Shown: positions 33,005 through 62,395 of the stretch, piece by piece | How the letters are laid out: every line of letters begins with the position of its first letter | Position numbering within the stretch: position 1 is the stretch's first letter | Assembly: GCA_902602795.1 (NCBI GenBank) | Contig: CACKSF010000001.1 | Location: forward strand, 5,601-69,600 | Direction of reading: 5' to 3' | DNA: 64,000 nucleotides | DNA from: an uncultured Fidelibacterota bacterium | GTDB lineage: Bacteria > Fidelibacterota > Marinisomatia > Marinisomatales > UBA1611 | The notes under the pieces: model-generated | What the model was told of the DNA's origin: nothing | The model's input: only the letters and a program-made list of their open reading frames with translations | The model's database searches: none | Translations under genes and position numbers: made by a program

Positions 33005-34846
33005 ATGGGAAAAAATTTTAAAACAATTGATGAAGCTGTAATTAGGTTTGCTGGAGACTCTGGTGATGGAATGCAGCTAACCGGTGGACGTTTTACCGAA
33101 ACCACAGCCATTGTGGGTAATGATCTCAGTACACTCCCTGATTTTCCAGCTGAAATTCGCGCACCAGCAGGATCGTTGGCTGGCGTAAGTGCTTTTCAGC
33201 TTAAATTTTCATCAAAAGACATCCATACTCCAGGTGATAAACCGGATGTGTTGGTTGCTATGAATCCAGCTGCATTAAAAGTTCATCAGAAAGATGTAAT
33301 ACCAGGTGGAACTATTATAATGAACACAGATGCTTTTGTAAAAAAGAACCTTAATTTCGCTGGATATGATTCAAATCCAGCGGAAGATGGATCCTTAGAT
33401 GACTACTTTACTATTATTCCTATCGAAATGAATAAAATGGTGAAAGCAGCCTGTGAGGATCTTGACTTAAATGGGAAATTAGTTCTTCGAACCAAGAATT
33501 TCTTTGCATTGGGTGTATTATTTTACATGTATGATCGCCCTTTGGATGCAACTGAATCTTGGCTAAAGAAAAAATTTGCAGGCAAAGATGATATTATTGA
33601 AGCAAATACTAGAGCTATGAATGCTGGATATAATTATGCGGACACTACTGAGTTATTCACTACTAGGTTTAAAGTCGAAAAGGCATCTCTTCCACCTGGA
33701 ACATATAGAAATATTAATGGTAATTACGCAACTTCACTCGGCTTATTAGCTGCCGCAGAAAAGTCTGGTCTTGAATTATTTTTAGGAAGTTATCCAATAA
33801 CACCTGCTAGCGATATTTTACATACATTGTCCGCTTGGAAACACTTTGGTGTAAAAACTTTTCAAGCTGAGGATGAAATTGCTGGGGTAACCTCCGCTAT
33901 TGGAGCGGCTTATACTGGAAGTTTAGCTATAACAACTACATCCGGACCCGGTATAGCGTTGAAAGGTGAAGCCCTGGGCCTTGCAATTATGACTGAACTA
34001 CCTCTCGTAGTCATTAATGTGCAGAGAGGTGGGCCTAGTACAGGTTTACCTACCAAAACAGAACAATCAGATTTAAATCAAGCACTCTATGGACGAAATG
34101 GAGAGGCTCCAATGCCAGTAATCGCAGCATCTACTCCAGGTGACTGTTTTTTTGCTGCATATGAGGCTTGTAGAATTGCAGTAAAACATATGACTCCTGT
34201 TATGCTTCTTACTGATGGCTATTTAGCAAATGGTTCAGAACCTTGGAATATCCCAAATGTTGAAGAACTTGAAACATTTGAGGTGAAATTTGCTGAAAAA
34301 CCAAATGCTGATGGTGATTTTTTCCCATACCTTAGAGATGAAAAAACCTTAGCGAGGCCTTGGGCTATACCAGGAACGCCAGGTTTAGAGCATAGGGTTG
34401 GTGGTATTGAGACAGCTGAAAACACTGGGCATGTTAGCTATGATCCGGAAAACCATCATAATATGGTTGTTGCTAGGCAAGAAAAAGTAAATAAAGTACA
34501 GAATGATATTGCTCAGACCGAAGTTTTTGGTGAAGGTAGCGGTGATCTTCTCGTTTTAAGTTGGGGAGGCACATATGGTGCATGTCGTTCAGCGGTAGAG
34601 ACTCTTCAAGAAAATGGGAAAAAAGTTTCGCACGTTCATGTTAGATGGATTAGCCCTCTTCCAAAAGATTTAGGTGAAATTTTAATTCAATTTAAAAACA
34701 TATTAGTCCCTGAGATAAATCTGGGGCAATTTCTAAGATTAATTAGGTCAGAATACCTTGTTGATGCCAAAGGTCTAAATTTAGTTAGAGGTAGACCAAT
34801 TGGTGCAGCAACAATTGTAGAGGCCGTAAACAAAACATTGGGATAG
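33005..34846 (+). CDS. korA: 2-oxoglutarate/2-oxoacid:ferredoxin oxidoreductase alpha subunit (gamma-alpha fusion)
   Basis: N-terminus IRFAGDSGDGMQLTG (gamma-type), central GSYPITPASDIL and TTSGPGIALKGEALG. Confidence 0.85.
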   Translation: MGKNFKTIDEAVIRFAGDSGDGMQLTGGRFTETTAIVGNDLSTLPDFPAEIRAPAGSLAGVSAFQLKFSSKDIHTPGDKPDVLVAMNPAALKVHQKDVIPGGTIIMNTDAFVKKNLNFAGYDSNPAEDGSLDDYFTIIPIEMNKMVKAACEDLDLNGKLVLRTKNFFALGVLFYMYDRPLDATESWLKKKFAGKDDIIEANTRAMNAGYNYADTTELFTTRFKVEKASLPPGTYRNINGNYATSLGLLAAAEKSGLELFLGSYPITPASDILHTLSAWKHFGVKTFQAEDEIAGVTSAIGAAYTGSLAITTTSGPGIALKGEALGLAIMTELPLVVINVQRGGPSTGLPTKTEQSDLNQALYGRNGEAPMPVIAASTPGDCFFAAYEACRIAVKHMTPVMLLTDGYLANGSEPWNIPNVEELETFEVKFAEKPNADGDFFPYLRDEKTLARPWAIPGTPGLEHRVGGIETAENTGHVSYDPENHHNMVVARQEKVNKVQNDIAQTEVFGEGSGDLLVLSWGGTYGACRSAVETLQENGKKVSHVHVRWISPLPKDLGEILIQFKNILVPEINLGQFLRLIRSEYLVDAKGLNLVRGRPIGAATIVEAVNKTLG

Positions 34847-42237: not shown

Positions 42238-42314
42238 GGTGGGTGTAGCTCAGCTGGTTAGAGCACCTGGTTGTGGCCCAGGAGGCCGTGGGTTCAAGTC
42301 CCATCACTCACCCA
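42238..42314 (+). tRNA. tRNA-His (GTG)
   Basis: Hand-folded cloverleaf: G-1 + GTGGGTG acceptor, anticodon arm CCTGG-TTGTGGC-CCAGG, T-arm GTGGG-TTCAAGT-CCCAT. Confidence 0.85.
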
Positions 42315-42322
42315 GATAATTT

Positions 42323-42397
42323 CGGGGTATAGCGTAGTCCGGTTAACGCGCCTGCTTTGGGAGCAGGAGATCGGGAGTTCAAATCTCTCTACCCCGA
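42323..42397 (+). tRNA. tRNA-Pro (TGG)
   Basis: Acceptor CGGGGTA/TACCCCG, anticodon arm CCTGC-TTTGGGA-GCAGG, T-arm GGGAG-TTCAAAT-CTCTC. Confidence 0.9.
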
Positions 42398-42399
42398 CA
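42355..42399 (+). repeat. attL core (inside the intact tRNA-Pro)
   Basis: CTTTGGGAGCAGGAGATCGGGAGTTCAAATCTCTCTACCCCGACA. Confidence 0.8.
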
Positions 42400-42426
42400 C
42401 TCGAGAATGCCAAATATCTCTCGACA

Positions 42427-42455
42427 AAAGCCCTGCTAGTAAGCGGGGCTTTTAC
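42427..42455 (+). terminator. rho-independent terminator after tRNA-Pro
   Basis: AAAGCCCTGC-TAGTAA-GCGGGGCTTTT hairpin plus T tract. Confidence 0.6.
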
Positions 42456-42490
42456 TTTCAATGATTATCAATCTTTATCATTAATAGCCA

Positions 42491-42520
42491 AAAACGGGAC
42501 AAAAAAAACGGGACAAAAGG
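42491..42520 (+). repeat. tandem direct repeat AAAACGGGACAAAA x2 next to attL (possible arm-type recombinase sites)
   Basis: aaaacgggacaaaa-a-aaaacgggacaaaa. The GGGACAAAAG core recurs in repeat family B. Confidence 0.5.
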
Positions 42521-42735
42521 GCACCCCGCGAGTTGGGTCCCATCTACCCATAATTCCATTGGGACTCCTACAGAGGTTATTATAATATTTTCTTTAATCA
42601 TTATTTTAGCTACATTCAAATATCATCAGGAGTGGTTTCATATTTGAAACCCACCAACCGAGCCCAGATAAATCATGGTCACGGTGGTTAGAGCCTTAAA
42701 CGCTAGATGTGCCCAGGAAAATGGGAAACATGATT

Positions 42736-42775
42736 AGCCGCCTGATGTGCGGCTTTTTTCGTTTATAGACCTACC
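42736..42775 (+). repeat. junction repeat A, diverged copy (A0)
   Basis: AGCCGC-CTGATGT-GCGGCTTTTTTCGTTTATAGACCTACC: hairpin, T tract and GTTT..TAG box in the same layout as the A family. Confidence 0.45.
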
Positions 42776-42808: not shown

Positions 42809-43063
42809 ATGTCAAAAAATAAAAAACAACAATTAAAGGATATTAAGACTGAAGAATTAGATGTTAATGGTAATCCAATAGACCCTAATAGAGAATACAT
42901 TGGAAATAAAGTTAAAGTACCGATGGCATCTTTAAATTCATCTATTTATAAAACACCCACTACTATAATACTCAAAGGAAAACCAATAACGTCAGACAAA
43001 AAGAAGAAAGCAAAGTTACTTGAATTCATAAGTAGAGCCCCCATTAGTTTTGATTCAGAATAG
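42809..43063 (+). CDS. hypothetical lysine-rich protein
   Basis: ORF preceded by a strong SD (AAAGGAGA-N6-ATG). No motif recognised. Confidence 0.5.
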   Translation: MSKNKKQQLKDIKTEELDVNGNPIDPNREYIGNKVKVPMASLNSSIYKTPTTIILKGKPITSDKKKKAKLLEFISRAPISFDSE

Positions 43064-43240: not shown

Positions 43241-43289
43241 AAGCCCCACATTAGTGGGGTTTTTTTTTGTGGGATGATGGGTAGATTTG
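43241..43289 (+). repeat. junction repeat A1
   Basis: AAGCCCCACATTAGTGGGGTTTTTTTTTGTGGGATGATGGGTAGATTTG. Confidence 0.85.
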
Positions 43290-44786: not shown

Positions 44787-44836
44787 AAGCCCCGCATATG
44801 TGGGGTTTTTTGTTTGTGGGATGATGGGTATATTTA
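44787..44836 (+). repeat. junction repeat A2
   Basis: AAGCCCCGCATATGTGGGGTTTTTTGTTTGTGGGATGATGGGTATATTTA. Confidence 0.85.
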
Positions 44837-46418: not shown

Positions 46419-47012
46419 ATGAAGATGTATGAAGAACTAAAAGAAAGGTACGGAAACAGGATAAAACTCGGAGATAATTACAAGGATAAATACGTCGGAA
46501 AAAGTGATAAAGATGAGGCTGTTTTCATTTATCCAAAAGGCATCAAGATTCATAAGAAGTACTGGATTAAAGAAGCATCAATAGACACTTCTAATCAAAT
46601 CTTTATGATGGATGAATTGTTAGGTTTTGATAATTCTAAGCCACTCTACTTATTTGAAGGTGAAAAGGATGCTATAGCCTCAAAATTACAAGGAGTATCA
46701 TTCTTTTGCGGTGCTACTTCTATCCCAAAAAATATAGATGCTTTGTATGAGTTTGATGAAGTCGTACTCATATACGATAATGATGAAGCAGGTGTAAATG
46801 GTGCTAAAAAGGTAGCTGAACGGATTAAATCAGAATCACCAACAACCAAAGTACTAATTGCTCAATGGGATTCATCACTTCCAAAAGGATATGATGTTTA
46901 TGATGATGGTAAAAAGACTGGATTCGCCAAGGTAGATGAAGCCATTGCAAATACAATTATATATGATTTAAAAATACCAACAGAATTAGAAGGATTTACA
47001 ATTATGACATGA
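46419..47012 (+). CDS. Toprim-domain primase module
   Basis: LYLFEGEKDAIA (catalytic Glu) and VLIYDNDEAGVNGAKK (DxD). Ends at a TGA that is in frame with the following P-loop segment. Confidence 0.7.
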   Translation: MKMYEELKERYGNRIKLGDNYKDKYVGKSDKDEAVFIYPKGIKIHKKYWIKEASIDTSNQIFMMDELLGFDNSKPLYLFEGEKDAIASKLQGVSFFCGATSIPKNIDALYEFDEVVLIYDNDEAGVNGAKKVAERIKSESPTTKVLIAQWDSSLPKGYDVYDDGKKTGFAKVDEAIANTIIYDLKIPTELEGFTIMT

Positions 47013-47974
47013 AAAAAAGCAAGTAATACCGTTCCTAAACCAACAGAATGGATAATAGAAAATGTATTGCCTAAGGGATTTAATTCGTGTCTTGCAGGAA
47101 CGACTGGAAGTAAGAAATCTATGTGGGCAATCCAATTAGGTTTGTCAGTTGCGAATGGGAAAAAGACTTTTGTGGAAACCGTATCAAAGGTGGAAGTAGA
47201 AAGGTGTTATTTATTGATACGGAGATAGGGCAAGATGAATTACTTCGCAGGTATCACAAAATAAAAAGCAAAATAGATTGGAAAGGTGATGACAATATCA
47301 TAATGATGTCTAAAGGCGGAACAACGATGGACATTTGGGAACAAACAGAAAAAATGATTCAGGCGTATAGACCCGAAGTAGTCATCATTGATAGTATGTA
47401 TAATGCCACAAGTGTTTCAGATTTCTCCAAATCAACTGGGATGAGCAAGGTAACAGATGCTCTTGCTACTCTTAAAGATAAATACGGAGTTACTATTTTA
47501 ATTATTGCTCATTTCAATAAAGGTAATGATGAACAGGTAACTCATATAGATAGGATACAAGGTTCTGCAGTTTTCAAGAACTCTATTGAATTTCAAATAT
47601 GTATGATACAGACTAACATTGATGATTTCAATATCTTCCAAGTACAAAAGACTAGAGGAGTTCCTTTTGACAGATCTTACATTGGTCTTAAGTGGGATGA
47701 TTTTTGGTTTACTACAAAAGGTATCATTGAAGATATATCTGATTACCTTGTGACTGAACATAAGAAAAAAAAGTGGACTTCTGTATTGGAAGATTTGCCT
47801 GACAGGTTTGATACAAAGGATTGGCTGAATGTTTTTAATAGCAAGTTTGAGATGTCAGAAAGAACTGGAAAAGTTTGGCTTAAAGAGGTTAGTAGAACCC
47901 AAATGGTAGATAAGATTTCTCACGGAGTTTATGAGAAGAAACTTAAACTAATTGAAGAGAATGAAATTGATTAA
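47013..47974 (+). pseudogene. RepA/DnaB-like P-loop helicase (AAA_25-like), frameshifted
   Basis: Walker A segment ..CLAGTTGSKKSMWAIQLGLSVANGKK lies in the Toprim frame (47013-~47165). The remainder (VLFIDTEIGQDELLRRY.., VVIIDSMY Walker B, IIAHFNKG) lies in the frame of ORF 47123-47974. The shift maps to the gggAAAAAg run near 47158-47163. Confidence 0.65.
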
Positions 47975-49385: not shown

Positions 49386-49622
49386 ATGAGTATGAGTGAA
49401 GTTAATAAAGGTGGAAGACCTAGAGAAGAACCCACCAATGTACGCAGTGTTAGATTGCCCAACAGGATTTGGAAATTGGTACAAAAGGCATCGAAAGGCA
49501 GTCGTTCAGTCAATGAATATATTCAAACAATAATTGAGAATGATTTGATTAAACGGAAAATGCTAAAGAAGTCAGAACGGAAAAAACTATCCTCTAAAAC
49601 CTCTACGAAAAGGAGTCAGTAA
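49386..49622 (+). CDS. ribbon-helix-helix (CopG/Arc-like) DNA-binding protein
   Basis: GGRPREEPTNVRSVRLPNRIWKLVQKAS....SVNEYIQTIIENDL fits a beta-alpha-alpha RHH pattern. SD AGGAG is present; TAATG overlap with the integrase. Confidence 0.5.
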   Translation: MSMSEVNKGGRPREEPTNVRSVRLPNRIWKLVQKASKGSRSVNEYIQTIIENDLIKRKMLKKSERKKLSSKTSTKRSQ

Positions 49623-50734
49623 TGGCGATACTTAAAACTCGTAGAGATAAATGGTATGAAAGAGTGATATGGTTTGTAAATGGTAAGTTTATCGAAAAAC
49701 AAATACCATTAAGAACCTCATCAAAAGTAACTGCAAGAGAGAGAATTGCAGAGGTCAAAAAGGTAGAAGGAGATATTAAACAAGGGATGGAGTTTTCATT
49801 CCCTTGGCTATCCAATTTTGCAAAGACCAAAGTAAAACGGTTCACCATTAAAGAAGCAGTTGATCAATGGTTATTAAAACGGAAGGGTAAAGTTGCGAAT
49901 TCTACATTGGATTTGAATGAGGATGGTTTGAATTATTTTCTCAAGTTCATGGGCAATGCAAATCCTATCGAAACAATCTCAACAAGTAATGTGGAACAAT
50001 TCATTGATTGGTTGGAAGGAAGGGGTTTAAGCAAGGCAAGTATTAATATACATTTACGAACTATAAAATCGATGTTTAGGTATTATCTAAATGTTGGTAG
50101 ACTGACTTCAGTTCCTCATATCCAACAATTGAGGATTCCAAAAACAGAACCTATCTACATCACAGATAATGAGTTTCAATCCATAATGGAATTAGATTGG
50201 TTAGATGATTTTTACAAGCTTGTATTCCTTTTATATCGTGAGACTGGAATGAGACTAAACGAGCATATGATTTCAGTACTTGATGGAGATTGGGTTGACA
50301 TACCTAATACATCCAAAGGTAAGGTAGGAAGAAACACCCAATTAGATAGACCAATGCAATCCATCTTCAATGAATTGAAAGAATGGTTAAGCAGTGGTTA
50401 TGGTTCAAGGCTTAAGACACCTGATGACCATATCAGTAAGATGTTTAAGAAAGCCTTAAGAAGTATAGGTGCAGATGAAAGTAAACATTTCCATTCACTT
50501 CGGCATACATTTGCAGTAAGAAGATTGATACAAGGAACATAAATATATGATTTAAAATTGTTGATGGGTCATAGTTCAGTCACAACTACTGAAGTCTATT
50601 CAAATATGAATCTTAAACGAGTGTCTCAAGGTTTTCCAACCATAGTCACAAGATATGTAAATATGACTAAAATTGGAAATTTGGACACAAAAACCTTGGA
50701 CACAATAGCATTACCAATGACCTATGTGACGTAA
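49622..50734 (+). pseudogene. tyrosine recombinase/integrase with an in-frame TAA before the catalytic Tyr region
   Basis: YRETGMRLNE (Arg I) and HSLRHTFAVRRLIQGT (HxxR), then TAA at 50540-50542. The same frame continues IYDLKLLMGHSSVTTTEVYSNM (His, Tyr nucleophile) to the stop at 50732-50734. Confidence 0.8.
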
Positions 50735-50763
50735 TAAATTAGGTTACAGCTTCCAAGCGGATA

Positions 50764-50808
50764 CTTTGGGAGCAGGAGATCGGGAGTTCAAATCTTTCTA
50801 CCCCGACA
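50764..50808 (+). repeat. attR core (orphan 3' half of tRNA-Pro)
   Basis: CTTTGGGAGCAGGAGATCGGGAGTTCAAATCTTTCTACCCCGACA (one C>T difference). No 5' tRNA half precedes it. Confidence 0.8.
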
Positions 50809-50835
50809 ATGAGGCAACACACTTGTCTCTTCAGA

Positions 50836-50870
50836 AAAGCCTCGTCAAACGATGAGGCTTCTTTGTTTTC
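50836..50870 (+). terminator. terminator after the orphan tRNA-Pro 3' half
   Basis: AAAAGCCTCGTC-AAAC-GATGAGGCTTCTTTGTTTT. Confidence 0.55.
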
Positions 50871-50910
50871 ATACTTAGTAATAAATGTTCATTAATACCC
50901 GTTTGGGGGA

Positions 50911-50992
50911 CACACCCTATGGGCGTATGGCATTTTAGGAATGAACGTAAATCCTCATTCCACGCAAAGTATTTGAAAAGAAAGTCCTTGGA
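50911..50992 (+). repeat. repeat C1 (long form)
   Basis: CACACCCTATGGGCGTATGGCATTTTAGGAATGAACGTAAATCCTCATTCCACGCAAAGTATTTGAAAAGAAAGTCCTTGG; shares its core with C2-C4. Confidence 0.7.
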
Positions 50993-51035
50993 GTAAGTTT
51001 AAATATTCTAATAATCTATTAACAAGGCCTTTACT

Positions 51036-51701
51036 TTATGGTGCTTCCCAAATAATTGGATATATAGATTCACCAAAGATACCTACGCTACGAGAATAGA
51101 AGATTTTTAAATCTTTACTAGAAAAAGGATTCTTTTGAGATTCTCCGTCAAGTGTATTGCCAAAATAATTGGAGCCATACTGTTCAATCGACTTTTTGTG
51201 CCTAATTACTCTTATTGGGTGCACATCTGCTTTTAAGGCTGCTATTATGTCGGAATCTGCATCTCCGTAATATAAATCAAGCTTTAAAGAAGTCATTTTA
51301 CGGTGTTTAGTAGTATGTTTGATGCCATCTATTTTTTCATTTGGACAGAAAAATAAATTTTTATTTTTCTCTATTTTCAAATCAAGTTTTTTAGATAAAA
51401 AGCGTGCTAAAGTTTCTCCATTTTCTCCTGATCTTGCTGTTATAAAAAAAAGGTTATGTCCATTTTCTGAAAAATAGTTTATTAGCTCTACCGTTGGTTC
51501 TATAAAAACTGATAATTTTTCATCTTGTTCATTAACCCAGCTATAATCAATTGGGTTTTTTTTATTTTGAGGTATATTTTGAAAAACATCTCTAGAAAAT
51601 AATATTGTATCATCAATATCAAATCCTACATTTAATATGCCTGAACTTGCTAAAGAGAGTGATTTTATAAATGTTATTATAATTAATAGTTTTGAATACA
51701 T
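51036..51701 (-). CDS. class B acid phosphatase (AphA-like, HAD superfamily)
   Basis: Signal peptide; GFDIDDTILFS (DDDD motif I), FFITARS, YYGDADSDI, matching the AphA layout. Confidence 0.75.
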   Translation of the reverse strand: MYSKLLIIITFIKSLSLASSGILNVGFDIDDTILFSRDVFQNIPQNKKNPIDYSWVNEQDEKLSVFIEPTVELINYFSENGHNLFFITARSGENGETLARFLSKKLDLKIEKNKNLFFCPNEKIDGIKHTTKHRKMTSLKLDLYYGDADSDIIAALKADVHPIRVIRHKKSIEQYGSNYFGNTLDGESQKNPFSSKDLKIFYSRSVGIFGESIYPIIWEAP

Positions 51702-51808
51702 ATAGTTAAAAGGTTTATTTAAGGGTTAGTAATTACTTAAAAAGACACAAAATTATCTTTAACAAATTAAAATAAAAGCTAATCTTTCTACTCAAAAATT
51801 ATTAGTAC

Positions 51809-52027
51809 CTAATAAAGATTATTTTCTCTTTCATAATCGTTAAGCATTGCTAGAAGGTTCATAATAAAACTTTCATATTGCTTTAGGCGTATAGATAATT
51901 TGTCGCCTGTATCTTTTTTTAATTTATAATCCTTTTTAAGTGATTTATTTTCTTGCAAAATGTCAGCTTCAAAAATTGGTTTGTTGAGAATATTATTAAC
52001 AGAGTCATTGAAGTTGTCTTTATCCAA
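51809..52027 (-). CDS. small coiled-coil protein, unknown function
   Basis: 72-aa ORF, charged/helical; no motif. Confidence 0.35.
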   Translation of the reverse strand: MDKDNFNDSVNNILNKPIFEADILQENKSLKKDYKLKKDTGDKLSIRLKQYESFIMNLLAMLNDYERENNLY

Positions 52028-52103
52028 TGATTACTTTATTGTATGGATATGTGATTGGTAACATAGTTAAATCCTGTTGGCCAGAAGAGGAATAGGCATC
52101 ATC

Positions 52104-52152
52104 AAGCCCCACATTCGTGCGGTTTTTTGTTTGTGGGATGATTAGTAGATTA
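52104..52152 (+). repeat. junction repeat A3
   Basis: AAGCCCCACATTCGTGCGGTTTTTTGTTTGTGGGATGATTAGTAGATTA. Confidence 0.8.
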
Positions 52153-52235
52153 ATTTATTTACTTATTGCTAATTTACTTGAACTTAATTATTATTCATAT
52201 TTACTTAACTATTATTAATTAATCACCATTTACAA

Positions 52236-52760
52236 ATGCGCAAATATATATTCTTACTTTTAATTACTGGAACCGTTTGGGCACAAACGGGTTTAGATAA
52301 ATTAGTTTTTAAAAGGGGTGCTTATTATCAAGGAAAATATGCAAACACCGATAATAAAATTACATACTTATTTGAACCACAGGCAGTTTTGGATGCAAAA
52401 AAAGATGCAAAAAAATGGATAGCTTACCCACTATTAGTAGGACTTACATTCGCCTCATCAATATATGGTACTATGACGATTGCCAGAGAAGAGCCTTGGG
52501 AAAGCCTCCCAGCAATGATAGGAATTAGCACTGCTAGTTTAGCTTTACCATACATTAGTTTAAATAATTCTGATAAAAACCAAATTGAAAAACTAAGTAA
52601 GCAAGTTTATGATATTGAATTATATAAAGAAACTTTTTCGGAAGAATTCATAAAAAATAATATCATAGGTTTAGGTCTGTTAGGTTTGGCTGCTGCTGGA
52701 GGATATATTTATTTTATTTCAACTTTTACTTTGAATGATGACTTTTATTTCGGACCGTAG
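52236..52760 (+). CDS. signal-peptide protein with C-terminal multi-TM region
   Basis: MRKYIFLLLITGTVWAQ signal and three hydrophobic segments. Same architecture class as 43364-43858. Confidence 0.55.
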   Translation: MRKYIFLLLITGTVWAQTGLDKLVFKRGAYYQGKYANTDNKITYLFEPQAVLDAKKDAKKWIAYPLLVGLTFASSIYGTMTIAREEPWESLPAMIGISTASLALPYISLNNSDKNQIEKLSKQVYDIELYKETFSEEFIKNNIIGLGLLGLAAAGGYIYFISTFTLNDDFYFGP

Positions 52761-52775
52761 TGCAGTTATTTGGTC

Positions 52776-52824
52776 AGCCCTATATTTGTGCGGCTTTTTG
52801 TTTGTTGGGTGATGGGTAGATTTG
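52776..52824 (+). repeat. junction repeat A4
   Basis: CAGCCCTATATTTGTGCGGCTTTTTGTTTGTTGGGTGATGGGTAGATTTG. Confidence 0.8.
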
Positions 52825-52975
52825 GATATGCTTTTCTACTATACAAAATTAATATATTATCTATGGGCTTTGGTATTACCCTTATTATATTTTATTTTTC
52901 AAATAATGGATTAGGTTCCTATTATTTCTATCTTAATCAATAATATATATAAAAAAACAATAGTATAAATGACAC

Positions 52976-53846: not shown

Positions 53847-53897
53847 CTACACACATATTCGTTGGGTTTTTTGTTTGTGGAATGATGGGTATATTTT
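53847..53897 (+). repeat. junction repeat A5 (eroded hairpin)
   Basis: CTACACACATATTCGTTGGGTTTTTTGTTTGTGGAATGATGGGTATATTTTG. Confidence 0.75.
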
Positions 53898-53900
53898 GAT

Positions 53901-54134
53901 ATGAGAGGAGAATTAAAATTCTTAGCAGGGTTTGCTATTGGCATAGCAATAGGCGCAGCAACTGATAATTTAGGTATAGGAATTGGTATCGGTATTGCTT
54001 TTGGTTCTGCATTATCCCAAACTAAAAACGAACAGAAGAGTATTAAATCAGATTCAAGTGAAGAGGATATATTAATTGATTTCAACCACATGAATAGAAG
54101 AAAAAGAAAAGCCAAGAATGATGAAAAAGAGTAG
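53901..54134 (+). CDS. small glycine-zipper membrane protein
   Basis: FLAGFAIGIAIGAATDNLGIGIGIGIAFGSAL followed by a charged tail. The ATG lies 3 nt after the A5 box. Confidence 0.55.
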   Translation: MRGELKFLAGFAIGIAIGAATDNLGIGIGIGIAFGSALSQTKNEQKSIKSDSSEEDILIDFNHMNRRKRKAKNDEKE

Positions 54135-54180
54135 AGCCCCATATTCGTGGAGTTTTTTTTTGTGAGATGATGGTTAAATC
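54134..54180 (+). repeat. junction repeat A6
   Basis: AGAGCCCCATATTCGTGGAGTTTTTTTTTGTGAGATGATGGTTAAATC. Confidence 0.75.
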
Positions 54181-54410
54181 TATTGATGCCTTGAATTAAA
54201 AATTCATAATTGTTTCCAGAGCTATTAAACTTATTATCTTCAAAAATTTCTAAAACCTTAATTTATTATTTAACAATATTTAATTTATAATTAATTTAAA
54301 TCAATGTTAACTTTATCTTTATTAATAATTAACAGCGAATTTATCAATATTTTATGTTCATTATTTTTAGGTATAATGGATCATAAATATTTTACCTTGT
54401 TATATATATT

Positions 54411-56153: not shown

Positions 56154-56198
56154 TTAATCCTCATTCCCTACAAAGTATTTGAAAAGAAAATCCAAAGT
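56154..56198 (+). repeat. repeat C2
   Basis: TTAATCCTCATTCCCTACAAAGTATTTGAAAAGAAAATCCAAAG. Confidence 0.7.
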
Positions 56199-56206
56199 TT
56201 TTAATT

Positions 56207-56228
56207 CTTGTGGCGATGGTTAGATTTA
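56207..56228 (+). repeat. junction repeat A, right half only
   Basis: TTGTGGCGATGGTTAGATTTAA directly after C2. Confidence 0.6.
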
Positions 56229-56274
56229 AATATGAAAAACACAAAGTTAGTAATAGGAGTAGTAGAATTTTTAT

Positions 56275-56320
56275 AAGCCCCACATTCGTGGGGTTTTTTG
56301 GGAGGATGATGGTTAAATTA
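56275..56320 (+). repeat. junction repeat A7
   Basis: AAGCCCCACATTCGTGGGGTTTTTTGGGAGGATGATGGTTAAATTA. Confidence 0.8.
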
Positions 56321-56336
56321 AAATTATCTGGTCATT

Positions 56337-57564: not shown

Positions 57565-57614
57565 AAGCCCCATATTCGTGTAGTTTTTTATTTGTAGGTT
57601 GATGGGTAAATTTT
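57565..57614 (+). repeat. junction repeat A8
   Basis: AAGCCCCATATTCGTGTAGTTTTTTATTTGTAGGTTGATGGGTAAATTTT. Confidence 0.75.
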
Positions 57615-57626
57615 AAAGTGCTTTTT

Positions 57627-59021
57627 ATGCAAAAAAACATGCCATTATTTATATTTTTTGTATTTTCCAATTATTTAATGGCTGAATGTTCAGATCTTGA
57701 TTCATTACAATGCGTCCAGTATCCTGAGTATTGTAGTTGGGATCAAAATCTTCATCAGTGTCGGGACGTTACTGTTGATACATTGGGTTTTAATTACGAT
57801 TGCATTCCATTTAATGACTTTAGCTCAATTCCTATAAATACTACTGATTACGCTGAAATGTGTATCGATTATGTTGGATTACCTCCCAGTGTTGATTGTG
57901 GAGAAGGTGTACCTATTCCTGTTTATGTTGATGGCATATCTATGAATGTTGATCAACCACAAGGAGAATGCGATCATCCAGATTTCAAGGGTGGTTGTTT
58001 CGTTGGCTCTAGAGTTGGAAGGGTGCAAGGTATAGATATTGATGGTGAGCATATGCCTGAAGTCATTTGGGTATATTTTTGTCGTTCTGCTGGTCAGGAA
58101 TATTTCAATGAATATGGCATTGTTTCTGTACAAATGATAGGATATAATACAGAAACAGGAGCAACTTGTTTTTTTGAGTCACCAGACGCTGTTGGTGATA
58201 TGATTCAGTCAGAATATTTAGAATTTGATGAAAATGGTTTATTAGATGGAGAATTGCCTGGTTATGGTAATCCTTGGTTTGATGAGGCATGGCATTCCCC
58301 GGCTGTTTCTCAAGCAAATTGTATATCTTGTCATACAAGCGACCCTTTTGTTCATGACCCTTGGATTGACCAAGCTAAATTACCAAGTGACCCTACACAA
58401 ACAGTGGTTCCTAAACTGGAATCTTCAGATTTACTATATTTTGCGGTTGGAGGATATGGAAGCCAATGGGATAACAGAAGCATACATGTTGAGGGCAATC
58501 AATGTTTGAGTTGTCACAGATCCAATATGATACTTGCTTATGAAAACTTTGAAGCTTTAGGTCATGTAATGATAAATGATTTTATGCCACCACATCAACC
58601 AGGGGCCCTTTCTGATGACTATAACGAACTTATTCAATGCTGGATTAATGGACCAGAAAATACAGATGGATGCGATTGGATAATTCCTCCGGGAGGAGAT
58701 TGTGAAACTCAGGTGCTATCTATCCAAAACGATCATATCAGAAATAATTTCTTTCTCCATCAAAATTATCCAAACCCATTTAATCCTTTTACTATTTTAC
58801 GATACGACTTACTAGAAGATGGGTTAGTAAATATCACTGTTTACGATATACTTGGCAATGTAATTAATCAGTTGGTAAATGAGGTTCAACATTCTGGCTA
58901 TAAGTCCATTCAATGGAATGCAACCAATAATCAAGGTCAGCCTGTATCTGCAGGAGTCTATTTATATACTATAGAAGCAGGAGATTTTAGACAGACCAAG
59001 AAGATGATATTGTTAAAATAG
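57627..59021 (+). CDS. secreted di-haem c-type cytochrome-like protein with T9SS sorting domain
   Basis: Signal MQKNMPLFIFFVFSNYLMA; two CxxCH motifs (NCISCHTSDPF, QCLSCHRSN). C-terminus NYPNPFNPFTILRYDL...GVYLYTIEAGDFRQTKKMILLK. Confidence 0.7.
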   Translation: MQKNMPLFIFFVFSNYLMAECSDLDSLQCVQYPEYCSWDQNLHQCRDVTVDTLGFNYDCIPFNDFSSIPINTTDYAEMCIDYVGLPPSVDCGEGVPIPVYVDGISMNVDQPQGECDHPDFKGGCFVGSRVGRVQGIDIDGEHMPEVIWVYFCRSAGQEYFNEYGIVSVQMIGYNTETGATCFFESPDAVGDMIQSEYLEFDENGLLDGELPGYGNPWFDEAWHSPAVSQANCISCHTSDPFVHDPWIDQAKLPSDPTQTVVPKLESSDLLYFAVGGYGSQWDNRSIHVEGNQCLSCHRSNMILAYENFEALGHVMINDFMPPHQPGALSDDYNELIQCWINGPENTDGCDWIIPPGGDCETQVLSIQNDHIRNNFFLHQNYPNPFNPFTILRYDLLEDGLVNITVYDILGNVINQLVNEVQHSGYKSIQWNATNNQGQPVSAGVYLYTIEAGDFRQTKKMILLK

Positions 59022-59034
59022 AAATATTTTAAAC

Positions 59035-59140
59035 GCAAAACTCTATATTAGTGTTTTTTTGTTTGTGTTAATCTTAATTCCTCAAAAAGTATTTAAAAGA
59101 AAGTCCAAGGTTTGTTGTTTGTGGTATGATTTGTATATTT
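59035..59140 (+). repeat. junction repeat A9 split by repeat C3
   Basis: GCAAAACTCTATATTAGTGTTTTTTTGTTTGTG | TTAATCTTAATTCCTCAAAAAGTATTTAAAAGAAAGTCCAAGGTTTGTT | GTTTGTGGTATGATTTGTATATTT. GTTTGTG is present on both sides of C3 (59068-59116). Confidence 0.75.
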
Positions 59141-59150
59141 TTGTTGAAAA

Positions 59151-59636
59151 ATGTTTAATAAACTTAAGGTGAAGGAATTATCTATGCAAAAAATAAGTAT
59201 AATTATACTAATCTCAACTTTTCTTTTTGGAAGTGATATTAATAAAATAAAAGAAACAATTCATTCCAATTGGGATAAAGTAGCACAAAAAAATGTTACT
59301 GGTTTAATTCATCCTGATGGTAGTTGGATGGCAAATTCTGAAGGAGGATTTTGGAATTTTCAGACAGTGCAAGATAATAAAACATTGATAGAGGATTCGC
59401 CAAATACTTTAAATCTTAAAGCACACCATATCCATGTAGATTTTTATGGATCAAAAAAAGATTTGGCATATGCTGTGTATTATTTATCAGGAAGTATCGA
59501 AAGAGAGGGAAAAGTTATGATTTCAAATTATCGAACTCGTGCATCCAATTTATTAAAAAAAGAGAAGGGTAAATGGCTTACTGTCGGTGCTCATTATAGC
59601 CCTATGCACTCTGGATCTGGTGTAAAATTCGATTAA
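59151..59636 (+). CDS. secreted NTF2/SnoaL-like (DUF4440-like) protein
   Basis: Signal peptide (the true start may be MQKIS at 59184). Alpha+beta cone-like pattern ending ..KEKGKWLTVGAHYSP. Weak family call. Confidence 0.45.
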   Translation: MFNKLKVKELSMQKISIIILISTFLFGSDINKIKETIHSNWDKVAQKNVTGLIHPDGSWMANSEGGFWNFQTVQDNKTLIEDSPNTLNLKAHHIHVDFYGSKKDLAYAVYYLSGSIEREGKVMISNYRTRASNLLKKEKGKWLTVGAHYSPMHSGSGVKFD

Positions 59637-59660: not shown

Positions 59661-59712
59661 AAAAACCCCGCATTCGCGGGGTTTTTTGTTAGTGGAATGA
59701 TTGTTAGATTTG
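59661..59712 (+). repeat. junction repeat A10 (perfect hairpin with compensatory changes)
   Basis: AAAAACCCCGCATTCGCGGGGTTTTTTGTTAGTGGAATGATTGTTAGATTTG. Confidence 0.8.
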
Positions 59713-59715
59713 ATA

Positions 59716-60990
59716 ATGAATGAGTCGATAAATATTTTTACTCAAAGATTCAACGATATAAAAATTGAAAACGAGTATTTAGATTTTAAATGGCCGCGAA
59801 TTTGGCCTTATCTTAAAGCTTTTCTATTTTTAACTTTGCTAATTAAAGCATTCGTTATGTTTGAAGACATAAAATTACTTGGATTACAAACACCTTATAT
59901 AATCTATCACATCTTTGATCTTATAATATTTGTTGTTTTCATGTTTATAATATCCAACAATAATAAAAAGAAATACCACCAGATATATATGAGCTTATCT
60001 TGGATAGGATTTATGAATATTGGTACCTGGACATATTACTTTTCACCATTTGATTTTCCTCCAGGAGAAGGAGTAGTAATCACATGCATAATTCTTCCAC
60101 TAACTATTTACCCTTTTCATTTAGTGAACGGGGTTATTTCTGCGTTATTTACATCAATTCCAATTATGGTAATGTTAATTCAAAAGGGAATGATGACCAA
60201 TGATCAAATTACATACCTATTTATTTTGCCTTTAATTTTTATTTTATTTGCCAAAATCAATTTCGAGAATAGATCGAGGAAAGATTTTATTAAAAGCTTG
60301 AAGCTTGATTCGAATAGAAAATTAATGAGACAAACACTAAAACGTTATTTTGGTGAAAATCTAACCAAAAAAATTCTGCACAATCAGGGAGATCTTAAAG
60401 GAGACAACATCTGGATTTCAATATCGTTCACTGATATTTCATCATATTCTACCATTATTGAACACATGTCCCCAGAAATGGTTGTAAGGTTTTTAAATGA
60501 ATATTTCTCTGCTATGCATGACGTTATAGATAAATATAAAGGTCAAATTGTAAACTATATTGGTGATTCGGTTATGGTAGTTTTTGGAGCTCCAAAAAAG
60601 GTAGAGGATCATGAAATAATGTCATTGAAATGTGCTATTGAAATGAGAGAAAAATTAGAAAAATTGAACAGGATTTGGGATGAAACAGAGTTTTCAAGAT
60701 TTTGGAAAAATCATGGTATTGAAAAAATAACTGCGCGCACTGGAATCCATACAGGTAGTGTAATTGCTGGAAATATTGGAAGCGATAGGATGTTACAGTA
60801 TAGTACTATTGGGGATACGGTCAATGTTGCTTCAAGATTAGAGCAGGCCAATAAAGATTTTGAATCTGATATTGCTTTTAGCCATGAAATTTACAATGCC
60901 TTAAACCAAAAATTACATTCAAAAGCTATTTTCCTTGGAGAAATAAAATTAAAAGGGAGAGAAAATGCTACAAAAGTATATTCAGTTTAG
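59716..60990 (+). CDS. membrane-anchored class III adenylate/guanylate cyclase
   Basis: About 6 N-terminal TM helices. Cyclase domain ISISFTDISSYS (metal Asp), NYIGDSVMVVFGAP, RTGIHTGSVIAGNIG, YSTIGDTVNVASRLE. The ATG lies 3 nt after the A10 box; the ORF-track TTG at 59701 lies inside the repeat. Confidence 0.85.
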   Translation: MNESINIFTQRFNDIKIENEYLDFKWPRIWPYLKAFLFLTLLIKAFVMFEDIKLLGLQTPYIIYHIFDLIIFVVFMFIISNNNKKKYHQIYMSLSWIGFMNIGTWTYYFSPFDFPPGEGVVITCIILPLTIYPFHLVNGVISALFTSIPIMVMLIQKGMMTNDQITYLFILPLIFILFAKINFENRSRKDFIKSLKLDSNRKLMRQTLKRYFGENLTKKILHNQGDLKGDNIWISISFTDISSYSTIIEHMSPEMVVRFLNEYFSAMHDVIDKYKGQIVNYIGDSVMVVFGAPKKVEDHEIMSLKCAIEMREKLEKLNRIWDETEFSRFWKNHGIEKITARTGIHTGSVIAGNIGSDRMLQYSTIGDTVNVASRLEQANKDFESDIAFSHEIYNALNQKLHSKAIFLGEIKLKGRENATKVYSV

Positions 60991-61353: not shown

Positions 61354-61408
61354 AAATACTTTCCATTTATTTGTGAAGTTTTTTGTTTATGAGATGATTG
61401 GTAAGTTT
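61354..61408 (+). repeat. junction repeat A11 (degenerate)
   Basis: AAATACTTTCCATTTATTTGTGAAGTTTTTTGTTTATGAGATGATTGGTAAGTTTT. Confidence 0.6.
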
Positions 61409-61646
61409 TACTTTTAGTTACAATTTCTCTTTCCCGATAGTAATTTTTCCAATGATCGAAACCTTCAGAGCCTATGTTAGAAAGCATATTAAATACTTTT
61501 TTTATATTGCCCTCATATTAGCTATAAAGGAATGGGCAGATTTGTTTAGAGGTGATGAGTTAGATTTATTGAGGTTGATAGGAAACAGTGCGTTAGCATT
61601 TTATTTTTGGGGTTTATCAGTAGGAAAATTTGAATTTAGAGAATAA
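61398..61646 (+). CDS. small two-TM membrane protein
   Basis: The true start is probably the internal Met (MIETFRAYV..). TM helices YFFYIALILAI and ALAFYFWGLSV. Confidence 0.4.
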   Translation: MVSFTFSYNFSFPIVIFPMIETFRAYVRKHIKYFFYIALILAIKEWADLFRGDELDLLRLIGNSALAFYFWGLSVGKFEFRE

Positions 61647-62309: not shown

Positions 62310-62346
62310 CCAAGTGAATAGTTTTCTTGGATTTTTTTGTTTGTGT
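62310..62346 (+). repeat. junction repeat A12, left half ending at GTTTGTG
   Basis: CCAAGTGAATAGTTTTCTTGGATTTTTTTGTTTGTG, followed directly by C4. Confidence 0.65.
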
Positions 62347-62395
62347 TAATTCACACCCTATACACAAAGTATTTGAAAGGATAATTCGAAGTTTC
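62347..62395 (+). repeat. repeat C4 (short form)
   Basis: TTAATTCACACCCTATACACAAAGTATTTGAAAGGATAATTCGAAGTTTC. Joins the CACACCCTAT and CAAAGTATTTGAAA segments that are 41 nt apart in C1. Confidence 0.65.

Follow-up and report, generated by a model that had tools for sequence, protein, structure and literature searches.

Several described systems set short repeated sequences between or beside unrelated genes. Integron arrays (sedentary chromosomal integrons, such as those with the Vibrio VCR) are co-oriented series of single genes with a conserved repeat and a leader-like element at one end, and the Correia elements of Neisseria are bounded by 26-bp terminal inverted repeats and make a TA target duplication. 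How genes are gained and shuffled in streamlined, abundant ocean bacteria is still poorly understood. In the variable regions of T4-like phages, promoter-early stem-loops (PeSLs) are terminator–promoter motifs that supply expression signals and have been proposed to act as portable recombination homology (Arbiol et al. 2010, PMC2839356; Comeau et al. 2014, PMC4122927), and tycheposons form tRNA-linked islands in Prochlorococcus and some Proteobacteria (Hackl et al., preprint 10.1101/2020.12.28.424599). The subject here is a 64,000-nt stretch of the genome of an uncultured SAR406 (Fidelibacterota) bacterium (assembly GCA_902602795.1, contig CACKSF010000001.1, positions 5,601 to 69,600), called the window below, and in it one intergenic junction, at 59035-59140, where a short element (C) stands within a copy of a longer intergenic repeat (A) and is flanked on both sides by the heptamer GTTTGTG.

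With fair confidence, we read this junction as the meeting point of three recurrent modules in a co-oriented array of single genes, within a variable island beside tRNA-Pro. The modules are H, the left part of A (A-left: hairpin plus T-run); R, the right half of A; and C itself. The observations behind this reading are the anatomy of the modules, their co-occurrence statistics, the spacing of start codons, the lack of a duplication particular to each copy, and synteny breakpoints at module edges. They come from a comparison of the window with about 135 loci (labelled L001 and so on) from SAR406/Marinimicrobia metagenome-assembled and single-amplified genomes (MAGs and SAGs) and from marine metagenome contigs. 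A scan of one genome per species for the C core yielded 17 loci, 13 of them in Candidatus Neomarinimicrobiota (SAR406) MAGs or SAGs and the remaining four chance matches within genes; at least 120 marine metagenome contigs were also matched, and the MAG MED648 is 93-96% identical to parts of the window. A and C lie in the comparison loci in the same co-oriented arrays as in the window. Among the matches listed, 168 distinct C copies were classified, 140 of them with full flanks. Exact-protein look-ups for three window proteins gave no match; Rfam, at gathering and at permissive thresholds, has no family for A or C, the only finds being tRNAs and a SAM-I/IV riboswitch elsewhere; scans of IMG/VR contigs for the C core and for R gave 0 matches each; and the literature searched holds no description of these repeats in Marinimicrobia.

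Feature coordinates are collected in Table 1. The junction reads ...GTGTTTTTTTGTTTGTG, with the left GTTTGTG at 59061-59067; then the 49-nt C copy TTAATCTTAATTCCTCAAAAAGTATTTAAAAGAAAGTCCAAGGTTTGTT (59068-59116); then GTTTGTGGTATGATTTGTATATTT, with the right GTTTGTG at 59117-59123. The first-pass annotation, made from the sequence alone, had described this arrangement correctly, and its account of three other C copies also stands: at 62333-62387 an A copy stops at the heptamer, TTTTTTTGTTTGTG leading directly to C4 (TTAATTCACACCC...CAAAGTATTTGAAAGGATAATTC); C2, at 56154-56227, has solely the right half of A after it; and C1 is a longer form, to which C4 aligns with a single 41-nt gap between CACACCCTAT and ACACAAAG. 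Downstream of C4 is a degenerate R-like stretch (..TTTAGCAGATTTT). The repeat flanking C at 59035-59140 exceeds seven nucleotides: TTTTTTGTTTGTG (59055-67) and TTTGTTGTTTGTG (59111-23) are identical at 12 of 13 positions. These sequence patterns are not due to chance: 0 matches to the C core are expected from shuffled sequences, TTTGTTTGTG is expected 0.37 times (5 found, each in an A or C junction), and the A core pattern 0.05 times (10 found, every one of them on the + strand and within 43-62 kb). Orthologues of the 467-aa gene upstream are found at L015 3535-4925 and L016 75-1480, with a different right neighbour in each; after both stands AAGCCCCACAATCGTAGGGTTTTTTGTTTGTG, with which the window H aligns, its own stem being degraded. 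In L015 the same H–S–C composite follows the gene (window 57631-59107 corresponds to L015 3535-5015; S is the part of C next to H). The NTF2/SnoaL-like protein encoded downstream has homologues in marine metagenomes at 82-94% identity.

C and R behave as a unit. R comes directly after C in at least 82 of the 140 fully flanked copies, and 73 of these have no A-left upstream, whereas H–C–R composites like that of the window account for only 9 of the 140 and H–C without a recognisable R for 12. Viewed from R, in a set biased to C-containing loci, 74 of 161 copies come after C and 60 after the hairpin. The unit has the consensus ...TAATCC(G/T)(T/C)ATTCCCCG-CAAAGTATTTGAAAAGAAAGTCC-(GTTTCCTG or GAAGTTTTTTG)TTTGTGGGATGATGGGTAGATTT. 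Because the right-hand GTTTGTG is present in the 73 copies without A-left, it belongs to this fixed unit. Nor do the two flanking cores of a C copy resemble each other more than chance pairing would give: identical heptamers on both sides are found in 2 of 16 H–C–R-type composites, those of the window and L060; the 13-nt cores on either side of C in the 16 short composites differ by 3.73 mismatches in their own pairs and 3.54 in cross-pairs (permutation p=0.90); and for the cores bracketing the long leader described below the values are 5.68 and 5.72 (p=0.43). The near-identity of the two window cores is explained by the consensus of the window's C subfamily, in which the right core is TTTTTTGTTTGTG even without A-left (L008, L028, L045, L064, L120, L133). 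The junction between H and C is itself recurrent: 12 loci have it in the form TTTTTTGTTTGT(A/G)T(T/A)AATCC, and nearly all composites, of both C subfamilies, have 24 nt between T-run and C core.

Homology between loci tends to end at these modules: 55 of the 120 internal breakpoints lie no more than 30 nt from one, compared with 5.9% of bases, although part of the enrichment is due to modules sitting at gene ends. The suggestion made at first reading that the junction repeats are places of exchange is borne out by these breakpoints, in a sense different from the one proposed. What lies to the right of the 467-aa gene is different in each of the window, L015, and L016. In L016 it is followed by H–R and another gene, and identity with the window stops right after GTTTGTG (59067); in L015 it is followed by H–C and unrelated sequence beside tRNA-Ser, and identity stops right after GTCC (59107). 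Homologous exchange between modules would leave breakpoints there, because homology ends at module edges. On the other side of the junction, an orthologue of the NTF2-like gene in L138 (86% identical protein) has the same unusual R, joined directly to a hairpin with no C, behind another upstream gene. Under strict criteria no two loci differed by a cassette indel (0 pairs); under looser ones two usable pairs emerged. One concerns the 1135-bp segment between C1 and its R, the long C of L007 (6353-6357) and L043 (4022-4026) joining R directly, followed by an orthologue of the gene at 52236-52760. In the other, a left-hand hairpin and a right-hand C–gene are common to L059 and L001, which differ by an R–gene–T-core of ~570 nt. 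In both clear filled/empty pairs the extra DNA is a gene plus hairpin, not C; insertion of a gene plus hairpin between C and R thus turns a C–R unit into an orphan C and an A repeat.

Some properties of the modules suggest what they might do. The sequence TAGATT is found at the end of R in 127 of 155 distinct copies, and in 59 of the 155 an ATG lies exactly 4 nt after TAGATTT; 45 of these begin an open reading frame (ORF) 50 or more codons long. Leaderless genes have such a geometry, with a TANNNT hexamer 5 nt ahead of the start-codon A. There is a second sharp ATG peak at 16 nt (22 copies), with AAGGAG lying between, and this class would fit the same start point with a 12-nt leader beginning at the Shine-Dalgarno sequence. 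The spacing suggests promoter activity for R, with TAGATT as the -10 and with mRNAs that are leaderless or have short leaders. Core genes at window positions 33005 and 42109 (minus strand) have TATAAA- or TATTAA-type hexamers 6-8 nt ahead of ATG, and by this measure leaderless starts may be common in the organism beyond the island. A-left has a 6-bp GC stem (CCCCAC-ATTC-GTGGGG) and a T-run directly past stop codons, and in one A copy the stem has the compensatory variant CCCCGC/GCGGGG, which suggests intrinsic termination of the upstream gene by H. The T-run of the putative terminator and the T-rich 5' part of R coincide in plain A repeats. C, rich in A/T and with phased A-tracts, is located some 40-80 nt ahead of the predicted start; it could be an upstream promoter element or a protein-binding site, the weakest step in the argument. 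A structured RNA was considered for C and rejected, the RNAalifold consensus of 80 C–R units being empty on both strands; the C1 region folds well (z=-3.3) because it contains a terminator and one local hairpin, the latter not conserved in other copies. Anti-Shine-Dalgarno pairing of CCTTCCTTAA with TTAAGGAG was dropped, since the upstream motif is present in leaderless copies too, and IHF, Pho-box and NtcA sites bear only a loose by-eye resemblance to the C core.

If these roles are right, the junction would work as follows. H (...GGGG-TTTTTTGTTTGTR), with its hairpin and U-tract, would terminate transcription of the upstream gene. C (TTAATCC..CAAAGTATTTGAAAAGAAAGTCC), A/T-rich and normally directly upstream of R, would act as an upstream element or binding site. 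R, consisting of the T-rich stretch, GTGGGATGATGGG, and TAGATT as putative -10, would place the start of transcription at the start codon or ~12 nt before it. Plain A repeats have a single T-rich stretch, in which H and R overlap; where a C–R unit comes after H, each module contributes its own copy. The apparent duplication of GTTTGTG would then arise because the T-rich tail of H precedes the T-rich head of the C–R unit. Kept across many SAR406 lineages, the modules could serve as portable homology by which genes are gained, lost, and re-paired through homologous recombination, a pathway suggested by analogy with the phage PeSLs.

Upstream of the array, the island begins at a tRNA gene. The window has tRNA-His and tRNA-Pro at 42239-42398, and a partial second copy of tRNA-Pro, 48/49 identical to the 3' end of the first. 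Between the copies are cassette-like genes with A repeats, a Toprim gene (46419-47012), an AAA_25 gene (47123-47974), and a tyrosine recombinase gene (Phage_integrase), whose frame continues past an in-frame stop with IYDLKLLMGHSSVTTTEVYSN, the region of the catalytic Tyr. Its homologue in L114 (75% identical) is intact at the position of the stop, which is probably a recent nonsense mutation, so that the element may be immobilised; homologues of the recombinase were found in only 3 of the ~135 loci. The segment 42323-50810 is an integrated, tycheposon-like, tRNA-targeting element, probably in decay; no report of such elements in Marinimicrobia was found. It also contains, upstream of an ORF at 42810-43063, the SAM-I/IV riboswitch (42618-42741; 49.5 bits, above the gathering score), an unusual cargo for a mobile element.

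The partial tRNA-Pro is followed directly by a long leader, roughly 200 nt in length, which ends in C1. In the window its parts are a terminator hairpin (50837-50860), CCTATGGGCGTATG (50916-50929), a hairpin GGAATGA/TCATTCC, and the C core (50965-50987). The general order is a tRNA, partial tRNA, or cassette hairpin; ~25 nt; a terminator hairpin; TTTTYTGTTT-CATCTTTAATCAT..TTATCAAA; a pair of direct repeats; CCTATAGGCGTATG; TAATCC...; the C core; R; and a gene. In 12 loci (L028, L044, L050, L057, L058, L061, L074, L078, L104, L110, L123, L013) there are 172-179 nt between tRNA-Lys(ctt), tRNA-Lys(ttt), or tRNA-Asp and the C core downstream of it, and in the window 155 nt between the partial tRNA-Pro and the C core. 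From this nearly fixed distance, islands start at tRNA genes with a long leader; C copies within arrays correspond to its promoter-proximal part in shortened form. The two direct repeats co-vary between leader copies (GGACACA, GGATACG, GGTACAC, GGGAAAC, and AAAGTCC, in about 30 loci), as protein-binding (arm-type) sites with matching specificities could do. The stretch past the full tRNA-Pro (42399-42520) has the same layout of hairpin, L, and direct repeats, with ACGGGACAAAA twice (42494-42518). These were considered as arm-type sites of the integrase and rejected: both copies are beside attL, and there is no further copy near attR.

Other explanations of the flanked C copy have to be set against the modular one. 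The first-pass annotation offered two, of which one made C a miniature non-autonomous transposable element, directed to the A core and leaving a 7-bp target-site duplication. The matching heptamers in the window and L060 speak for it, and C is present in many copies of long and short forms, as Correia-type elements are. However, C has no terminal inverted repeats: its ends, TTAATCC... and ...GAAAGTCC(GAAG), are non-complementary, and there is no inverted repeat of at least 8 nt in window 59030-59145, window 50900-51000, or L016 2415-2530. The two heptamers match in only 2 of the 16 composites and the cores show no correlation within copies, the right "duplicate" needs no insertion in the units without A-left, and C is never found outside a junction context. 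C3 and C4 share their whole junction, including an unusual T7 run, and are therefore copies of one composite and not two insertions. A clean empty site differing by C alone was not found in the limited data set: where H–R stands before the NTF2 gene (L138) or after the 467-aa gene (L016), the partner gene on the other side differs in each, and the filled/empty pairs differ by something other than C. The transposon is largely refuted and now barely credible. The other suggestion, that GTTTGTG is the crossover point of a site-specific exchange, is unproven. In its extended form the T-rich core (TTTTYTGTTTGTG) would be the crossover site of a dedicated recombinase, with R–gene–H units and C or long C moving as circles, as in integrons; the long C beside the tRNA would be an attI-like leader, and all crossovers should lie inside TGTTTGTG, regardless of flanking identity. 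A copy of the core does lie at every module boundary, with TTTTCTGTTT and TTTCCTGTTT bracketing the long leader too; L059 and L001 look as if an R–gene–core unit had been inserted at a single core; the H-to-C spacing is fixed and the junction repeated in 12 loci; the arrays are strictly co-oriented; and the hairpin sequence is conserved past structural need. Yet there is no integron integrase: the window's sole recombinase, the tyrosine recombinase at 49622-50542, scores 40.1 bits against the 265-bit cutoff of TIGR02249, sits in the tRNA-Pro element, and is interrupted by a nonsense codon. GTTTGTG departs from GTTRRRY, an R''/L''–L'/R' palindrome is lacking, and the core halves follow their own neighbours (TTTTTT after H, GTTTCC after C) without co-variation. 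L109 and L075 have their junctions elsewhere, the left end of the window's 1135-bp insert is without a core, and homologous exchange between conserved modules predicts breakpoints at module edges as well. We regard site-specific exchange as quite unlikely. It is slightly less likely still that the T-rich core is the crossover site of an undescribed system that builds up promoter- and terminator-bearing gene cassettes downstream of SAR406 tRNA genes, an integron-like platform free of IntI and attC on which the long C leader, with its co-varying direct repeats, would be the docking site.

A further explanation is historical. C3 and C4 may be trimmed former heads of the array, each once a leader (H–L–DR–P–S–C–R) that was pushed inward by tycheposon-like integrations and later shortened by deletion between short repeats. 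Displacement of older elements into the island by new ones is described in the tycheposon preprint (10.1101/2020.12.28.424599), and the leader stands at its fixed distance past tRNA-Lys or tRNA-Asp in the 12 loci, and after a partial tRNA-Pro in the window, L007, L015, and L114. An integrated element does lie between the full and partial tRNA-Pro of the window, C4 equals C1 minus 41 internal nucleotides, and L059, with H–core–DR–P–S–C, is intermediate between the long and short forms. Against this, the 24-nt spacing of the short H–S–C is the same in both subfamilies and in many lineages, which would not be expected from independent random deletions; C2, C3, and C4 have no adjacent partial tRNA; and short C–R units precede intact genes as ordinary junctions do. 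It is unlikely that C3 and C4 arose in this way.

The junction of recurrent modules remains our preferred reading, and several points weigh against it. R has no canonical -35 and was not called by a sigma-70 consensus scan; neither the Bacteroidetes-type -33/-7 nor the sigma-70 -35/-10 arrangement could be assigned to it, the spacing being wrong and the scan negative. The hairpin sequence, loop included, is more conserved than a plain terminator requires. A copies are no more alike within genomes (0.760) than between them (0.748; p=0.27), and concerted evolution within genomes, which had been considered, is not seen. A TGTTT-type core at every module boundary, together with the rigid H–S–C spacing, would also fit precise joining. 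The putative terminator, promoter, and upstream-element roles are assigned from position. Every comparison locus was retrieved with the C core, so that all frequencies are conditional on C (an ascertainment bias); many of the loci are short-read metagenome contigs, prone to breaks and mis-joins at repeats; and 28 of the 168 C copies are at contig ends.

The rest of the window gives the setting of the array. From 1 to 42 kb it consists of densely packed core genes with no A or C copies; 12 R copies follow between 43 and 62 kb, and from 52 to 62 kb an A repeat lies between each + strand gene and its successor. Within a locus, A and C copies are all on one strand. The genes between them are unrelated in the window (proteins with type IX secretion system [T9SS] tails, a carboxylesterase, an acyltransferase, the NTF2-like protein, an adenylate cyclase) and similarly varied in cargo across loci (T9SS proteins, hydrolase, acyltransferase, cyclase, PhoD phosphatase, Asn synthase). 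One unit is reduced to a 14-codon ORF after C2–R, whose start and 3' tail match a ~190-aa gene of L001; since both the N-terminus and the 3' tail are matched, this is a cassette almost wholly deleted, with its putative promoter and terminator kept. A third recurrent left neighbour of C, ..ACACATATAACCCTCCCACTATAAAGTCCAAACAAAGTC.., was observed in L044, L053, L055, L057, L068, L069, L079, L098, and L129. It often comes after a 12-codon ORF that begins with ATGACTAAACACCTCACAC and matches a common cassette gene at its start; this may be either another relic of a truncated cassette or a leader peptide.

Table 1. Modules, genes, and tRNA-linked features of the window (window coordinates; attL and attR denote the ends of the tRNA-Pro element).
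Feature	Coordinates	Strand	Remarks
attL core	42351-42399	+	3' 49 nt of tRNA-Pro (tRNA 42323-42398)
A repeat	43241-43289	+	hairpin + T-run + R
A repeat	44787-44836	+	flagged terminator-like
Tyrosine recombinase of tRNA-Pro element	49622-50734	+	in-frame stop 50540-50542, upstream of catalytic-Tyr region
attR core	50762-50810	+	partial tRNA-Pro copy
Long leader ending in C1	50811-50987	+	begins directly after partial tRNA-Pro copy
1135-bp segment between C1 and its R	50988-52121		minus-strand HAD phosphatase 51036-51701 + hairpin 52105
A repeat	52104-52164	+	
A repeat	52775-52835	+	
A repeat	53848-53908	+	ATG 4 nt past TATATTT
A repeat	54135-54182	+	
C2 + R	56154-56227	+	C core 56171-56193, R 56197-56227; ATG 4 nt past TAGATTT
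14-codon ORF	56232-56276	+	MKNTKLVIGVVEFL, then stop; between C2–R and hairpin 56275
A repeat	56275-56322	+	R diverged
A repeat	57565-57625	+	precedes 467-aa gene
Upstream gene, 467-aa protein	57618-59021	+	T9SS C-terminal sorting domain; Pfam Por_Secre_tail, FlgD_ig
A-left (H)	59033-59067	+	decayed putative terminator hairpin + T-run + GTTTGTG; T-rich core 59055-59067; aligns with AAGCCCCACAATCGTAGGGTTTTTTGTTTGTG
C3, short C	59068-59106	+	S part TTAATCTTAATTCCTCA, then core AAAAGTATTTAAAAGAAAGTCC, one G missing
Right T-rich core + R body	59107-59140	+	T-rich core 59111-59123; -10-like TATATT 59134-59139; putative promoter of downstream gene
Downstream gene, NTF2/SnoaL-like protein	59184-59636	+	Pfam SnoaL_3, weak
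A repeat	59663-59723	+	compensatory hairpin CCCCGC/GCGGGG; ATG 4 nt past TAGATTT (adenylate cyclase gene)
A repeat	61360-61420	+	degenerate
T-rich core + C4	62333-62387	+	C core 62365-62387; last junction of array before minus-strand genes; 41-nt internal deletion relative to C1

In these islands on the side of SAR406 tRNA genes, then, single genes are each framed by a conserved, putatively terminator–promoter module, and the arrangement recurs across lineages and ocean samples. If the modules work as proposed, an incoming gene would find expression signals ready for it, and the modules would provide homology portable between cells. Three testable predictions follow: a SAR406 promoter candidate (TAGATT, leaderless), an upstream-element candidate (C), and a tycheposon-like element in a phylum for which no report of one was found. 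A more general lesson is that the repeat around an apparent insert can come from two overlapping functional modules, without transposition.

Among known systems, the Correia elements resemble C in being short, multi-copy, and intergenic, with long and short forms, and able (putatively so for C) to supply promoter or terminator signals, but C lacks their terminal inverted repeats and TA duplication and is tied to a fixed neighbour, R. Integrons share with the SAR406 arrays the co-oriented, mostly single and unrelated genes with a conserved repeat between them, and a leader-like element at the array end. The SAR406 array differs in having no IntI and no attC palindrome with RYYYAAC/GTTRRRY boxes, A being a 6-bp GC hairpin with a T-run; in a repeat that carries its own putative terminator and promoter, where integron cassettes are normally promoterless; and in having a tRNA gene at its head, not attI/Pc. 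Tycheposons are matched by an element with tyrosine recombinase and primase/helicase-type module between a full and a partial tRNA, by cargo genes that build up downstream of the tRNA, and by degenerate integrases. The host here is SAR406, however, and the preprint does not mention Marinimicrobia; nor does the word "promoter" occur in it, and no terminator–promoter junction repeats between cargo genes were found described there.

The closest analogue of the A and C modules is the PeSL cassette. Both are short conserved intergenic motifs with a stem-loop terminator (putative in SAR406), a promoter (likewise), and upstream sequence rich in AT; both cluster in variable regions, just ahead of non-core genes; indels and replacements between relatives end in the motifs; and both have several sub-architectures. 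A further mark of PeSLs is the mini-circle, which arises when flanking motifs recombine. The differences are that the SAR406 modules, known here from sequence, lie in a tRNA-linked island of a bacterial chromosome and not in a phage; that R has no canonical sigma-70 -35; that many of the downstream genes appear leaderless (ATG 4 nt past TAGATTT); and that there is an optional upstream C and a ~200-nt leader tied to tRNA genes. In the literature searched, this architecture has been described so far only for T4-like phages, as PeSLs, and PeSL-like modules in tRNA-linked SAR406 islands appear to be new for the phylum.

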